DNA from: Candidatus Latescibacterota bacterium
Lineage (GTDB): Bacteria > Latescibacterota > UBA2968 > UBA8231
Direction: 5' to 3'
NCBI GenBank assembly: GCA_965200315.1
Contig: OZ241362.1
Coordinates: forward strand, 3,200,001 to 3,264,000
DNA length: 64,000 nt
The position numbers were made by a program, and so were the translations under genes. The notes below the pieces were generated by a model. That model saw only the letters and a list, made by a program, of their open reading frames with translations, ran no database searches and was not told where the DNA came from. Positions 3,176-30,264 of the stretch are shown in pieces. Positions within the stretch are counted from its first letter, which is position 1; each line of letters opens with the position of its first letter.

Positions 3176-3534
3176 TGGTGGAGGCGGCGGGAATCGAACC
3201 CGCGTCCGAGACCGGTTCTACCGAAATATGCTACGTGCGTAGTCGGCCTTAGTTATCTCGCCTGTTGCGCTGCCGGCCAACGGGCCACGCAACAGGCCAG
3301 CCCGAAAAATCTCGCCCCATTCCCTCGGGCGAAGGTTTGGGACCAGCCTGCTAAGAGATGGCATTGGGGCCTGCCGCGCAGGCTCAACAGACCCCAATGG
3401 GCTGCTCTAAATTTAGGCAGCCAGAGCGTACGTGTTATTTTCGTCGCTTAATTGTTTCCCGAGGATTTACGAGGTGTCGGGACCTCGGCACGCAATTTGG
3501 GCTTCTCCGACCCCGTCGAAGCCAAGTCGCCCCC
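3176..3534 (-). ncRNA. ssrA: tmRNA, tag peptide (A)DENNTYALAA
   Basis: 5' GGGGGCGACTTGGCTTCGACGGGG, 3' GGTTCGATTCCCGCCGCCTCCACCA; tag ORF 3413-3445 ending YALAA-TAA; 359 nt. Confidence 0.97.
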
Positions 3535-27900: not shown

Positions 27901-28893
27901 ATGGACAAAATTCGCGTGGGATTTATCGGCTGTGGTGGAAACGCCAGCGGGCACCTAGGGAGAGTGCTTGACATCCCCGAGACCGAAGTGGTGGCGCTGT
28001 GCGATGTGGATCAGGCCAGCCTACAGCGAGCTAAAGAGCGCAACTCGCAGGCCGCAGCGTTGCCGGAGTTTACCCACTACCAAAAGATGCTGGAGCAAGT
28101 CGAACTGGACGCGGTAGAGATTTCCACGCCGCACACATTGCACTTTGAGCAGATTATGGCTGCGCTGGACAAAGGGCTGCACGTGCTGACCGAAAAGCCA
28201 ATGGTCTGTACTGTCGATCACGCGCACCAAGTTATCGCCAAAGCCGAGAAGACCGGCAAGGTCCTGATGATCTCCTATCAGCGGCACTTGCAGGCGCAGT
28301 ACCGCTATGTGCGCAATCAGATCGCGGCCGGGGAATTGGGGGATATCCAGTTTATATCGGCGCTCCAAGACCAGAAGTGGCATCAGGGGACGATTGGGCT
28401 GTGGCGGCAGCAGATGGCGCTGTCGGGCGGCGGACAGCTCAACGATTCGGGAAGCCATCTACTAGACATTGTGTTGTGGATGACCGGGCTGGAGGTGGCA
28501 GAGGTGCAGGCCTACATGGACTATTTAGACTCTGAGGTGGACATCAACTCGGCGCTGTCGCTGCGCTTTCGCAACGGCGCGCTGGGGACGATTGCGGTGG
28601 TGGGCAACTCGCCGACCGGCGGAATCTGGGAGGACATCACCATCTGGGGGACCAAGGCCGTGGTCTACATTCGCCGGGGAGAGGTCTTTTATAAGACGCA
28701 GCACAGCAATGAGGTGTACGAAGTAAACAACTTGCCCGGCTCGACGACGCCCGACCAGAATTTCATCGACGCGATTCTCGGCCGCGATCAGGTGCAGGTG
28801 CCCCCCGAATGCGGCCTGCGGGTCATTGAACTGACCGAGGCAGCTTGGGCCTCGGCCGCTAGCGGGCAGCCGGTGAAAGTAAAAAGCATTTGA
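27901..28893 (+). CDS. Gfo/Idh/MocA oxidoreductase
   Basis: GFIGCG, HVLTEKP, GGGQLNDSGSH. Confidence 0.95.
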   Translation: MDKIRVGFIGCGGNASGHLGRVLDIPETEVVALCDVDQASLQRAKERNSQAAALPEFTHYQKMLEQVELDAVEISTPHTLHFEQIMAALDKGLHVLTEKPMVCTVDHAHQVIAKAEKTGKVLMISYQRHLQAQYRYVRNQIAAGELGDIQFISALQDQKWHQGTIGLWRQQMALSGGGQLNDSGSHLLDIVLWMTGLEVAEVQAYMDYLDSEVDINSALSLRFRNGALGTIAVVGNSPTGGIWEDITIWGTKAVVYIRRGEVFYKTQHSNEVYEVNNLPGSTTPDQNFIDAILGRDQVQVPPECGLRVIELTEAAWASAASGQPVKVKSI

Positions 28894-28919
28894 CATGGTT
28901 CTTCGGCGTTTGTCATATT
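28890..28919 (+). promoter_or_regulatory. Sigma70-type promoter driving the candidate ncRNA
   Basis: TTGACA (28890-28895), then extended -10 TGtCATATT (28911-28919). Confidence 0.7.
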
Positions 28920-28924
28920 AAACG

Positions 28925-29226
28925 CAAGACGGGTTCAGGTGCTATAGCTCCTGTTACCGCCACGCTGAGGCTCGAGGCTACGCGAGCGAGCCAGCCCGGC
29001 TTTGTAATTGGCCGCAACGACGCGCAGAGTTGGAGCATAGATTATGAGGCGCGCACAAGCGAAAGGAGGTGGTCCATTGAGTAGTAATTGTACCGCAGGG
29101 AGGTTGGTCACTTGATCAACTCCAGGTGATTGACTACCTGGTCAGAAGTTATGTCGCCGAGGCGACACCGCTTCTGAGAGTACAGCCGGGCGCACCCCAC
29201 CTTAGCGGGTGCGCCCGGTTTTTTTT
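28925..29226 (+). ncRNA. Candidate structured RNA with an extended 16S 3'-end complement and a 12-codon ORF
   Basis: Own promoter and terminator, multiple hairpins, GAAAGGAGGTGGTCCA at 29061-29076, sORF TTG...TGA 29077-29115. Confidence 0.7.
29184..29226 (+). terminator. Strong intrinsic terminator
   Basis: CCGGGCGCACCC...GGGTGCGCCCGG followed by T8. Confidence 0.93.
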
Positions 29227-29292
29227 GCCCGCGCTGCACTAAGTTGATTTCCACGCGGTATTTTTGTCATATTGTCCGCAAGGAGGCCGTCT

Positions 29293-30264
29293 ATGAAACG
29301 CATTGCCAAGCCCGCAGGGGCCTATAACATCGTGGTAGAAGAGGTCGAGATTCCGGCCATTGCCCCGACCGAGATTTTGATTCGCGCCGAATGTTCGCTT
29401 ATCAGCCGCGGCTCGGAGATTTGGCGGCGCTACGTGCGCGAAGAAGCGATCGACCACCGCTCTATGGGCTACTCGCTGGTGGGCCGCGTCGAAAAGGTGG
29501 GCGCGGAGGTCGAAGAGTTCAGAACCGGTGAGCTGGTCGCGGCCCTCGCGCCGCATGCCGAGTACGTAGCGGTCGAAGTCGCAGCCAGCCGGCACAAGCC
29601 AGCGGCCGTGCGCCTGCCAGCGGGCCTGTCGCCCGAGGCGGGCACCTTCTGGCCGCTGGGAACTAGCTCGGTCCTGTGGATGTGGGAGACCGAGGCCGGC
29701 CCGGATGATGCCGTGGTCATTCAGGGGCAGGGCTTGGTCGGCAGCGGTTGTATGCAGGCGGCCAAGGCACAGGGCGCGGGGCGCGTCATCGGGGTTGATA
29801 CCTTGCCCTTGCGCTGCGAACTAGCGCACGAGTTGGGGGCCGACGCGGTGATAGACGCCAGCGCCGGCGACCCTGTTGCACAGGTCTTAGAGCTGACGGA
29901 CGGAGCGGGTGCCGACATCGTGGTTGAAGCCGTGGGCGGGCGGGCCGGGGCGCAGGCTTTTGCCGAGGCGCAAGACATGCTCAAGCGCGGCGGCCTCTTG
30001 CAGGTGCTGGGCCTATACGAAAACGAACCTCTGCCGCTCTATTCAGAAAAAATCATGGGCAAGCGCCTCATAGGCAGCTACCTCGACGCCAGTCGGCGGC
30101 CCGAAGGATCGGCACGTACGCTAGAATTGTTGGCTACGGACCAGATCCAATTCGCCAAGATGATCACCCACCGCTTCCCCTACACAGAAGCGGCCGCCGC
30201 TTTCGACTTGCTCTACAATCGGTTGGGCGCGACGATGGCCGTATTGTTGACGTGGGACAACTGA
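29293..30264 (+). CDS. MDR-family (zinc-binding-type) dehydrogenase
   Basis: SLISRGSE, GYSLVG, GQGLVG, ITHRFP. Confidence 0.9.
   Translation: MKRIAKPAGAYNIVVEEVEIPAIAPTEILIRAECSLISRGSEIWRRYVREEAIDHRSMGYSLVGRVEKVGAEVEEFRTGELVAALAPHAEYVAVEVAASRHKPAAVRLPAGLSPEAGTFWPLGTSSVLWMWETEAGPDDAVVIQGQGLVGSGCMQAAKAQGAGRVIGVDTLPLRCELAHELGADAVIDASAGDPVAQVLELTDGAGADIVVEAVGGRAGAQAFAEAQDMLKRGGLLQVLGLYENEPLPLYSEKIMGKRLIGSYLDASRRPEGSARTLELLATDQIQFAKMITHRFPYTEAAAAFDLLYNRLGATMAVLLTWDN

Follow-up and report, generated by a model that had tools for sequence, protein, structure and literature searches.

The forward-strand segment 28890-29226 of the window (the whole 64,000-nt stretch of DNA that was analysed) probably contains a small mRNA-like RNA gene of the rre kind. 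In this gene, an unusually long complement of the 16S rRNA 3' end, here called the 'super-SD' after the Shine-Dalgarno (SD) sequence, directly precedes a mini-ORF, and binding and translating would be selected, not the peptide. We put the probability of this reading at roughly 60%. By its design the predicted RNA is an rre analogue, for which common descent is not demonstrated.

Organization of the locus

As first annotated, the segment proves to be one promoter-to-terminator unit, present in a single copy in the 5.36-Mb genome. The proposed promoter was confirmed, with TTGACA at 28890-28895, an 18-nt spacer and TG-n-CATATT at 28911-28919 (10 of 12 positions match, plus the TG), and its hexamers are retained as TTGACA or TTGACC and as TGTCATATT or TGTATATT among 24 sequences of the genus. 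The terminator likewise holds, as a hairpin at 29186-29218 followed by T8 at 29219-29226; its stem (helix 12) is paired in 99.7% of alignment cells, with two-sided changes at 4 pairs (27 sequences), and it was absent from the output of a simple terminator scan. The folding energy of the + strand of the unit is -132 kcal/mol (z = -5.05), a value equalled by 0 of 100 shuffles. The flanking genes are GFO/IDH/MocA and ADH at this locus and other pairs in four other genera, including HEAT/epimerase, porin/sensor and ParA/sigma-54 activator. Given a promoter and a terminator belonging to the unit, its single copy and its neighbours changing between genera, the locus is predicted to be a stand-alone gene. 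Its features are as follows.

28890..28919, +, sigma-70-type promoter with extended -10, from promoter scoring and genus conservation
28926..29226, +, predicted transcript of ~300 nt, its putative start site placed from the -10 box
28936..28953, +, 5' hairpin CAGGTG...CTCCTG (helix 1; 98.8% of cells paired, 2 two-sided changes)
28956..29073, +, structured 5' domain, closed by ACCGCC 28956-28961 with GGTGGT 29068-29073
29061..29076, +, anti-16S-tail motif (super-SD) GAAAGGAGGTGGTCCA, from complementarity to the genome's own 16S 3' end
29077..29115, +, sORF with a TTG start directly after the motif, 12 codons and a TGA stop
29090..29183, +, predicted 3' domain, closed by GTAC 29090-29093 with GTAC 29180-29183
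29096..29141, +, bistable segment, as two hairpins (29101-29121 and 29122-29141) or one (29096-29114 with 29123-29140)
29098..29103, +, SD-like element GGGAGG inside the sORF, at 6 nt from the last sense codon, which lies downstream
29142..29177, +, hairpin with the strongest covariation (helix 10)
29186..29226, +, intrinsic terminator with T8 after a GC-rich stem of 12 bp (helix 12 of the covariation test)

Complementarity to the 16S rRNA tail

The first-pass annotation had deduced a 16-nt complementarity from the common bacterial 16S 3' end, and comparison with the genome's own 16S rRNA (3' end ...GGCTGGATCACCTCCTTTCT) bears it out: all 16 motif positions pair, one of them as G:U. The two strands of the genome have 10,359 GGAGG sites, and at no other of them is there a 16-nt complement; the single longer one, of 17 nt, is simply the 16S gene read on its antisense strand. 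The duplex between motif and tail is predicted at -30 kcal/mol, the strongest of those compared, the comparators being a made-up control with the core AGGAGG only (-12.2) and the SD of the next gene (-15.4). To our knowledge, rre RNAs have the longest natural SD:anti-SD pairings known.

That the extended complement would be kept in homologues was upheld in part. The first 13-14 nt (GAAAGGAGGTGGT, mostly followed by C) are kept family-wide, while the last 2-3 nt vary; GAAAGGAGGTGGT is found in 42 of 43 family sequences, the remaining one having GGAAGG, and the family-conserved portion, GAAAGGAGGTGGT(C), stops at the start of 16S helix 45. Written in RNA letters, the motif matched the literature in an oligonucleotide table only; in DNA letters it occurs in papers, probably as a 16S PCR primer, to judge from their titles.

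Conserved RNA structure

The long 5' rod initially proposed (28942-28951 with 29032-29040) did not survive comparison: it was rejected, with just 68.2% of its cells paired over 27 sequences aligned by L-INS-i and with two of the nine pairs open in 24 of these sequences. An alternative fold has 98.4% of cells paired and 22 pairs changed on both sides in the 27 sequences; none of 500 shuffles was as good, and slid controls pair in 35-41%. The outer CTA/TAG part of the discarded rod displays a CG-to-UA exchange (14 vs 8 sequences) and may form a loop contact.

Within the 5' domain, two-sided changes occur at 4 of the 6 pairs of the inner helix 28969-28974:28987-28992, and the helix 28994-29005:29024-29036 is paired in 98.1% of cells. 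The closing helix (helix 2) is also paired in 98.1% of cells, its changes being one-sided only (AU/GU, CG/UG). Because the GGTGGT side of this helix falls within the anti-16S motif, the SD is predicted to be partly sequestered. The ACCGCC of the 5' domain is similar to the ACCUCC of 16S rRNA.

For the 3' domain, the closing pairing first suggested between TGTAC and GTACA stands as a predicted 4-bp GTAC:GTAC helix but lacks covariation, because it is invariant in 27 of 27 sequences; two-sided covariation was likewise absent from the SD-sequestering helix in this set. When the closing helix was put to a duplex-versus-shuffle test, most of the 42 genera-level sequences were not significant. The hairpins reported inside it do exist, and the first two can also refold as one long hairpin: the two-hairpin form is paired in 99.8% of cells and the one-hairpin form (helix 9) in 99.5%, with pairing of the latter preserved at variable positions. 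Hairpin 29101-29121 holds the stop codon in its loop and 3' stem. The bistable segment further contains near-copies of the 16S tail, GATCAACTCC (29114-29123) and GACTACCTGG (29132-29141), whose pairing with the super-SD is predicted at -12 to -13 kcal/mol. In helix 10, 7 of 8 pairs are changed on both sides and 100% of cells are paired.

Selection on the reading frame

The 12-codon ORF noted earlier is present, TTG...TGA at 29077-29115 encoding MSSNCTAGRLVT, and its TTG is spaced from the SD as is usual for a start codon. An open in-frame sORF of 9-13 codons occurs in all 42 complete family copies, with a TTG, GTG or ATG start lying 15, 16 or 20 nt from the motif start and with TGA, TAA or TAG as the stop. 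Selection tied to translation is visible in this comparison, as the frame stays in 42 of 42 copies while start, stop and length change. The subgroups differ by 1 nt in where AGGAGGT falls in the frame, a shift that a further 1-nt change downstream compensates, and the peptide of one subgroup reads ...LRRSTT, that of the other ...AGGATT; RRS becomes GGA because AGGAGGT is kept while its frame position shifts. Drift within the taxonomic family extends to ...TAGRLVT, ...PLRRSTT, ...PAGGATT and MESTGRSIT, and many species of the genus have Arg in place of Cys5. The copies compared in this way show selection that retains the reading frame and the RNA motifs, not the predicted peptide. Some peptide-level constraint is hinted at by the serine at codon 2, which is encoded by AGY codons here and by TCN in alpha-proteobacteria.

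The internal SD-like element was listed in 40 of the 42 copies, at a constant distance to the stop wherever listed (offsets read by eye). The two others are G102, which has the variant GGGAGGC, outside the search pattern, and L191, an incomplete sequence. Pairing of the internal GGGAGG with the 16S tail is predicted at -17 kcal/mol.

Distribution in the phylum

All but one of the genus's 24 other genomes contain the unit (23/24). Blastn returned no homologues beyond the genus, and a covariance model (R1) was needed to reach them: it matched 68 of 75 genomes of the organism's own family (f1) and 2 of 3 of family f3. Four weak R1 matches in family f4 were discarded as homologues, their positions differing from those of the motif loci in the same genomes. 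A motif-plus-start pattern matched 130 of the phylum's 168 genomes, with 1 match for the reversed pattern. Within the class it was found in 120 of 131 genomes (f1, 65/75; f2, 31/31; f3, 3/3; f4, 21/22), and by this pattern search motif and start are close to universal in one bacterial class.

Expression in metatranscriptomes

Metatranscriptomes from marine and sponge samples suggest very high expression of the RNA. All figures refer to contigs only, with depths adding up across related organisms: on this measure, summed depth at 28943-29131 was 10 to 10,000 times that of the flanks in 3 of 4 runs, and in two metatranscriptomes it reached 16,000-421,000 on the RNA versus 0-113 on the flanks. 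In the fourth run, X9, the RNA region had no enrichment over its flanks. Beyond the terminator, contig depth is ~20- to 1000-fold lower. The most abundant RNA contigs consist of the 5' domain and the motif; they stop at 29069-29076, before the sORF is reached. Since adapter sequence follows directly after 29069-29076 in RNA contigs, the fragments end at the end of the motif. These ends may represent strain variation or fragmentation instead of processing.

Known relatives

The kind of RNA was published in 2016, with the description of the small mRNAs rreB of Bradyrhizobiaceae and rreR of Rhodobacterales, rre genes being reported in alpha-proteobacteria only (Hahn et al., 2016, RNA Biol, PMC5711450). 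According to the main text of that study, the full-length rreB RNA of Bradyrhizobium sediments together with 30S subunits, translation of it is weak, its extended SD reduces translation rather than raising it, and a change of its GUG to UAG prolongs the half-life from 10 to 37 min. A 20-fold overexpression of rreB left growth unaffected, and the authors regarded simple ribosome sequestration as improbable for its main role (PMC5711450). Synthetic rre peptides were unstructured, and the RreB and RreR peptides were called conserved inside their own clades (PMC5711450). The 30S-binding and dual-function options offered by the first-pass annotation fit these sole characterised relatives to the extent that rreB was found to bind 30S and to be weakly translated (PMC5711450).

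The plan that this RNA has in common with the rre genes, as they are described in the main text of PMC5711450, comprises a small stand-alone transcript (predicted here) bounded by a promoter of RpoD type and a terminator, 16-17 nt complementary to the 16S 3' end and reaching the start codon, a non-ATG start and a sORF of 12-18 codons (14-18 in the described clades, 12 here). In both, the 5' nucleotides of the complement alone are predicted to be single-stranded, the remainder being helical, and the genomic context varies between clades. A complement of at least 16 nt to the genome's own 16S 3' end directly before the sORF start, and a short conserved sORF with a weak non-ATG start, are the marks of an rre gene, and both are found here. 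This RNA, in contrast, comes from a different phylum and has a TTG start instead of GTG; because of that start, 16 rather than the 17 nt of rre pair. Its SD is hidden by a ~135-nt 5' domain, whereas the rreB transcript begins 8 nt upstream of the complement (PMC5711450), and it has a second SD-like element before the stop as well as 16S-tail copies, neither of which is described in the main text of PMC5711450. No sequence homology to rreB, rreR or CC2171 was detectable: R1 did not significantly match L104, the rreB-type locus of Afipia, and reached at most 23.6 bits on 80 motif loci, including those of Rhodobacterales. The mechanistic likeness to rre therefore rests on common design.

That the RNA is not tmRNA, RNase P, SRP or 6S agrees with a gathering-level scan of Rfam 15, which had no match at the locus, the sole such match in the window being a tmRNA at 3176-3534 on the minus strand. 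Below that level, the Caulobacter sRNA CC2171 (RF01867) scored 27.6 bits at the locus, short of its gathering cut-off of 75. Its consensus opens with ...CGAAAGGAGGUGAUCCAGUG and continues with a closing helix beginning inside the sORF, internal hairpins and a terminator; the match comes chiefly from motif and terminator, and CC2171 is without the 5' domain. Expression of CC2171 is known in Caulobacter and Methylorubrum. The consensus of the actinobacterial sRNA Ms_IGR-5 (RF02471) opens with ACACAaGGAAGGAgGugGuCc and has a sORF of ~12 codons with GAGGUG near the stop. Ms_IGR-5 was above threshold in two Acidobacteriota loci and gave 28.2-41.2 bits (E down to 3.5e-6; cut-off 45) on copies of the sister family f4 of the same class; the locus itself was without a match at an E limit of 10, as were five other f1 copies at a limit of 0.01.

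The first-pass annotation had implied a novel RNA and had named a match to a described family as the sign of a known one. By that standard the RNA is only partly new, because the kind has been published (PMC5711450, 2016) and two Rfam families, CC2171 and Ms_IGR-5, share the plan. On sequence evidence, what is new is the rre plan in a different phylum, the covariation-supported 5' domain of ~135 nt that partly conceals the predicted binding site, and the second SD-like element, which precedes the last sense codon by 6-7 nt, with the 16S-tail copies. Among open-licence PMC papers and bioRxiv, the searches turned up no paper on rre RNAs besides PMC5711450. No rre gene beyond alpha-proteobacteria and no link of CC2171 or Ms_IGR-5 to the rre class was found there; the former may exist in print.

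Proposed mechanism and alternative explanations

We infer 30S binding, translation and the transcript ends in this organism. In the proposed mechanism, the unpaired 5' end of the motif, GAAAGGA, would serve as a toehold for the 16S tail, and full pairing with the tail would displace the ACCGCC:GGTGGT helix that otherwise conceals the rest of the site. The paired 30S subunit would be gripped far tighter than on an ordinary mRNA, so that most subunits would be parked and few would elongate. An elongating ribosome would have to unwind the 3' domain and, at the stop, would meet the second SD-like element at initiation-like spacing, together with the copies of the 16S tail; these could pair again with the SD-like segments, resetting the fold. 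As selection would fall on binding and translating rather than on the peptide, the RNA would influence the pool of 30S subunits whose anti-SD tail is free, or report on it. The toehold step, the parking step and the cellular role are proposals for this organism.

An ordinary micropeptide gene, with the 12-residue peptide as the effector and the long SD merely setting the level of translation, is unlikely. It would account for the maintenance of frame, start and stop in 42 of 42 copies and for the frequent serine at position 2, seen here and in 65 of 74 loci elsewhere, though in different codon families; conservation of RreB and RreR within clades (PMC5711450) also speaks for it. The peptide nevertheless drifts strongly within one taxonomic family, over 9-13 residues, Cys5 gives way to Arg in many species of the genus, and AGGAGGT is kept despite the frame shift. 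In rreB, moreover, the extended SD lowers translation and the synthetic peptides are unstructured (PMC5711450). The case for an RNA that is not translated at all, an antisense or decoy RNA serving 16S 3'-end maturation or quality control or using its tail copies to titrate tail-recognising proteins, is drawn from other features. The conserved complement covers the free tail and no more, starting where helix 45 ends and reaching ...UUUC, and near-copies of the tail (GATCAACTCC, GACTACCTGG and ACCGCC) occur in the RNA. Era and other factors bind GAUCACCUCC. The most abundant contigs stop before the sORF, at 29069-29076, but perhaps through strain variation or fragmentation; interchange of start and stop codons and in-frame changes in length are hard to account for without translation, and rreB is translated, albeit weakly (PMC5711450), which together make this explanation quite improbable.

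A cis-acting leader, be it a leader-peptide attenuator or a riboswitch, for the zinc-dehydrogenase gene at 29294-30264 would fit the position of the unit on the same strand, 68 nt before the next start codon, and the succession of a leader-like sORF and a terminator. Attenuators such as trpL also have a short ORF that overlaps alternative hairpins before a terminator; they differ from this RNA, which has no runs of regulatory codons and no conserved downstream gene. We know of no attenuator for which extreme SD complementarity is a feature. A promoter-like site (TTGATT-18-TGTCATATT at 29244-29273) and an SD belong to the next gene itself, four other genera have different neighbours, the sORF is without a run of a regulatory codon, and contig depth drops ~20- to 1000-fold past the terminator, so that a leader is very improbable. 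The reading of the locus as an rre-like gene, selected for binding and translating, is preferred.

The same plan in other bacteria

Of 79 motif-bearing loci elsewhere, the start codon is valid in 78, and sORFs of 12-29 codons occur in 74, with serine as the second codon in 65 of these 74. GGAG or GAGG is present 4-9 nt before the last sense codon in 37 of the 74, as against 1-18 of 74 at seven listed shifted control positions. The motif loci include L104 of Afipia broomeae, the strain depicted as an rreB homologue in Fig. 2 of PMC5711450, as well as Rhodobacterales loci with 18-codon rreR-type sORFs. A tentative and rather doubtful extension is that rre-like RNAs form an ancient class across many phyla, with a two-SD design and internal tail copies as a switch, that senses or regulates the 30S pool. 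Such a class would include alpha-, beta- and gamma-proteobacteria, Actinobacteria (Ms_IGR-5), Acidobacteriota, Planctomycetota, Gemmatimonadota and the present phylum, and its two SDs would tether the 16S tail at both initiation and termination of the mini-ORF.

As read here, the locus shows a ribosome-gripping design that recurs outside alpha-proteobacteria, and it ties two orphan Rfam families, CC2171 and Ms_IGR-5, to the rre class. It gives comparative leverage on ribosome-gripping RNAs, with the toehold, the SD-hiding helix, the second SD and the tail copies as testable elements. If the broader proposal is true, these RNAs would be abundant and would sense or regulate the pool of 30S subunits whose anti-SD is free, an RNA counterpart of the proteins that mask the anti-SD.

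Organization of the unit and its anti-16S motif

The small RNA locus (window 28890-29226) is single copy genome-wide, and the first-pass annotation was right to place it between a promoter, which matches at 10/12 positions, and a T8 terminator. The elements referred to below are as follows, in window positions, with the strand where it was assigned.

27901-28893: upstream neighbour, GFO/IDH/MocA oxidoreductase gene
28890-28919, +: promoter of the small RNA, TTGACA (28890-28895), 18-nt spacer, TG-n-CATATT to 28919
28936-28953: 5' hairpin, two-sided changes at 2 pairs
28956-28961, 29114-29123, 29132-29141: 16S-tail-like segments ACCGCC, GATCAACTCC and GACTACCTGG
28969-28974:28987-28992: well-supported helix, two-sided changes at 4/6 pairs
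29061-29076, +: anti-16S motif GAAAGGAGGTGGTCCA, directly 5' of the TTG at 29077
29077-29115, +: sORF, TTG AGT AGT AAT TGT ACC GCA GGG AGG TTG GTC ACT TGA
29142-29149:29170-29177: best-supported helix, two-sided changes at 7/8 pairs
29186-29218, +: terminator, 12-bp GC-rich hairpin, then T8, end of unit; two-sided changes at 4 pairs
29272-30264: downstream neighbour, zinc-type dehydrogenase gene as annotated, likely ATG at 29294

The extended -10 box TTTGTCATATT is identical in the small RNA (28909-28919) and in the promoter-like site of the dehydrogenase gene (29263-29273), which reads TTGATT-18-TGTCATATT at 29244-29273 (+). Elsewhere in the window, at 3176-3534 (-), lies a full-length tmRNA gene (Rfam RF00023, 204.4 bits).

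The 3' end of the genome's only 16S gene is ...GGCTGGATCACCTCCTTTCT, and the proposed complementarity was borne out on it, the motif pairing at 16/16 nt with one G:U. When all 10,359 GGAGG sites of the genome were surveyed, on either strand, the sole longer anti-16S run (17 nt) lay antisense to the 16S gene, and the runs next below the motif reached 15 nt. The predicted duplex of motif and 16S tail amounts to -30 kcal/mol, compared with -12.2 kcal/mol for a made-up control with the core AGGAGG site alone and -15.4 kcal/mol for the SD of the next gene.

Other genes with long complements were encountered in the same class. The second-longest complement of the genome (15 nt, GAAAGGAGGTGATTC) lies outside the window at locus L034 (G000:C1:3905910-3906050, +), where it is followed by ATG, a 25-codon hydrophobic sORF (MKKWLPLAIQIAIALLDNWPSKRHS) and a terminator; this locus, which adjoins a gene whose product begins like a P-loop ATPase, resembles a small type I toxin-like gene, and its motif plus start is also present in genomes G004 and G090. 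A separate gene family, likewise with a very long SD, carries GAAAGGAGGTGATATTATG or GAAAGGAGGTGATAATATG in 1-3 copies per genome (G030, G034, G035, G074, G077, G079, G080); in G030 this motif stands before a 56-codon Cys-rich ORF.

Conservation of the reading frame

Among 43 non-identical family-level sequences, one of which was cut by a contig end, the sORF is present in 42/42 complete copies. It starts with TTG, GTG or ATG at 15, 16 or 20 nt from the first base of the motif, ends with TGA, TAA or TAG, and spans 9, 10, 11, 12 or 13 codons. Two indels were found inside the genus, -3 nt (AGT) and +3 nt (GCA); as both are triplet-repeat slips, they are weak evidence by themselves. The peptides diverge strongly among genera (MSSNCTAGRLVT, MSSTSTTGRWIT, MACSNPTGRLIA, MSSSIPLRRSTT, MSSCIPAGGATT, MESTGRSIT). 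The last two 12-codon groups of this series differ by one base in where AGGAGGT stands in the frame, and a one-base compensating change downstream turns RRS into GGA. This pattern of sequence change indicates that selection holds the reading frame and the nucleotide motifs, and the peptide much less. The conserved TTGAGTAGTAA (29077-29088) places stops just past the start in both alternative frames (+1: TGA; +2: TAG, followed by TAA), and most family copies retain TGAGTAG.

A second GGAGG-type element is listed for 40/42 sORF copies, 6-7 nt 5' of the last sense codon, just as far as the first GGAGG lies from the start codon; its distance to the stop, from offsets read by hand, is constant in all 40. 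The tail-like segment of other genera, GACCACCT, is perfectly complementary to AGGTGGTC of the motif.

Structure of the RNA

Folding of the + strand is better than that of shuffled sequences (z = -5.05, 0/100 as good), with a weaker result for the minus strand (z = -3.47). Covariation in alignment A2, which comprises 27 sequences from two genera, argues for a structured RNA as anticipated: in the RNAalifold fold 98.4% of cells are paired and 22 pairs have changed on both sides, a result reached by 0/500 shuffles, while slid controls are 35-41% paired. A predicted helix closing the 5' domain (28956-28961:29068-29073) covers GGTGGT of the motif; it is 98.1% paired with one-sided changes only, which is compatible with a hidden GGTGGT. 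The segment 29096-29141 may form two hairpins (99.8% paired) or a single long one (99.5%), and all variation at the loop positions of the former preserves pairing of the latter. Since the second hairpin (29122-29141 and homologues; CCAGGTGGTCGACCACCTGG in other genera) is nearly palindromic, R1, a covariance model from 24 genus sequences, also matches the opposite strand there (extra 36-nt matches).

Two pairings of the first-pass annotation fared less well. The closing helix GTAC/GTAC does not vary within the two genera of A2 and is not established across genera. The long 5' rod (28942-28951 with 29032-29040) was rejected, being 68.2% paired with two pairs open in 24/27 sequences. Its sole supported part is a possible contact, which could be of pseudoknot type, between the 5' hairpin loop (28942-28944) and 29038-29040, 3' of the long 5'-domain helix; in the corresponding A2 columns (22-24 with 123-125), 14 sequences have CG at pair 23:124 and 8 have UA.

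Distribution and expression

By blastn, the unit was detected in 23/24 other genomes of the genus (80-93% identity) and in 0/16 genomes of three other families. R1 matched 75/132 genomes of the class, including 68/75 in the window's own family (f1), 2/3 in f3 and 0/31 in f2; four weak matches in f4 were not counted as homologues, their sites differing from the motif loci of those genomes. The pattern GAAAGGAGGTGRT-N3-4-TG, which joins the motif to a start codon, is present in 130/168 genomes of the phylum, with 1 match for the reversed control. It was found in 120/131 genomes of the class, the window's own excluded (f1 65/75, f2 31/31, f3 3/3, f4 21/22), and in 9/36 of other classes, where ordinary genes are among the matches. 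The 5' domain is present in the window's genus and one other, and leaders differ in several other genera. The f4 copies are without it; their promoter lies a few bases 5' of the motif, and their 11-codon sORF starts with ATG (MSDETSGGGCS and variants).

Expression was assessed as summed word depth over 28700-29500 in contigs of four metatranscriptome runs. In X7 (sponge), depth was 135,000-421,000 over 28943-29077 and dropped stepwise to 383 at the terminator, with about 17 past it and 0-11.5 upstream. X6 (marine) gave 16,000-38,000 over the RNA (113 and 20 in flanks and downstream) and X1 800-2,800 over 29024-29131 (194 and 91); X9 showed no enrichment over the RNA. Adapter directly follows 29069, 29072 and 29076 in X6 and 29042, 29069 and 29076 in X7, indicating that many fragments stop where the motif does. 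In these contigs, which are summed over related organisms and carry neither strand nor transcript ends, the RNA is present and seems to be very abundant.

Relationship to rre small mRNAs and proposed function

Hahn et al. (2016; PMC5711450) described rreB, a 165-nt mRNA found in Bradyrhizobiaceae. It has a 14-codon sORF with a GTG start, and 17 nt of it are complementary to the 16S 3' end, only the first 5 of these being predicted single-stranded. Full-length rreB RNA co-sediments with 30S subunits, for which the SD must keep its 5' extension; changing GUG to UAG lengthens its half-life from 10 to 37 min, and overexpression yields no growth phenotype. The paper makes no mention of CC2171, Rfam or Actinobacteria.

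By its sequence, the locus is like an rre small mRNA, with the features that define the class at that level, and has no detectable homology to rreB or rreR. It lies below the thresholds of RF01867 and RF02471, with a match at relaxed threshold to RF01867 (Caulobacter sRNA CC2171; 27.6 bits, cut-off 75). The CC2171 consensus opens with the same anti-16S motif, then GUG; this sRNA has been described as expressed in Caulobacter and Methylorubrum, with no function assigned. The consensus of RF02471 (actinobacterial sRNA Ms_IGR-5, given only as expressed in the literature found) shares its plan with the locus, and f4 copies score 28-41 bits on it (cut-off 45; E down to 3.5e-6).

Across 185,579 species genomes, a scan with GAAAGGAGGTGRTCCANTG gave at least 120 stretches, with 80 loci among the matches listed, to which the following counts apply. 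They are mostly alpha-proteobacterial, the remainder belonging to Planctomycetota, Acidobacteriota, Gemmatimonadota, 'Eisenbacteria', Burkholderiales and one gamma-proteobacterium. A valid start codon was present in 78/79 analysed (GTG 65, ATG 10, TTG 3) and an sORF of 12-29 codons in 74/79, with Ser as second codon in 65/74; GGAG/GAGG lies 4-9 nt 5' of the last sense codon in 37/74, compared with 1-18/74 at seven shifted control positions. Among 20 of these listed loci, RF01867 was passed by 2 and RF02471 by two from Acidobacteriota. The listed loci include one of Afipia broomeae ATCC 49717 with a 14-codon sORF and Rhodobacterales loci with an 18-codon sORF, neither of which R1 finds (best score 23.6 bits). 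Neither this cross-phylum spread nor a link between rre, CC2171 and Ms_IGR-5 was found in open-licence PMC papers or bioRxiv.

The unit precedes the dehydrogenase gene, as a cis-acting leader would; the promoter-like site and SD that this gene itself possesses, together with different neighbours in four other genera, argue for a stand-alone RNA and make a leader very improbable. A micropeptide gene would account for a frame found in every complete copy, and is unlikely given how little the peptide itself appears to be held. The full-length complement would also suit a non-coding RNA that targets the 16S tail as antisense or decoy, a reading that we consider slightly less probable still, the frame being among what selection appears to hold. 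We favor, with a probability of about 0.62, an RNA that grips the 30S subunit and is weakly translated from its mini-ORF. The selected properties would then be binding and translation, not the peptide; access would be controlled by a toehold and a hidden SD, and the second SD and the 16S-tail copies would work at termination or in resetting the fold.
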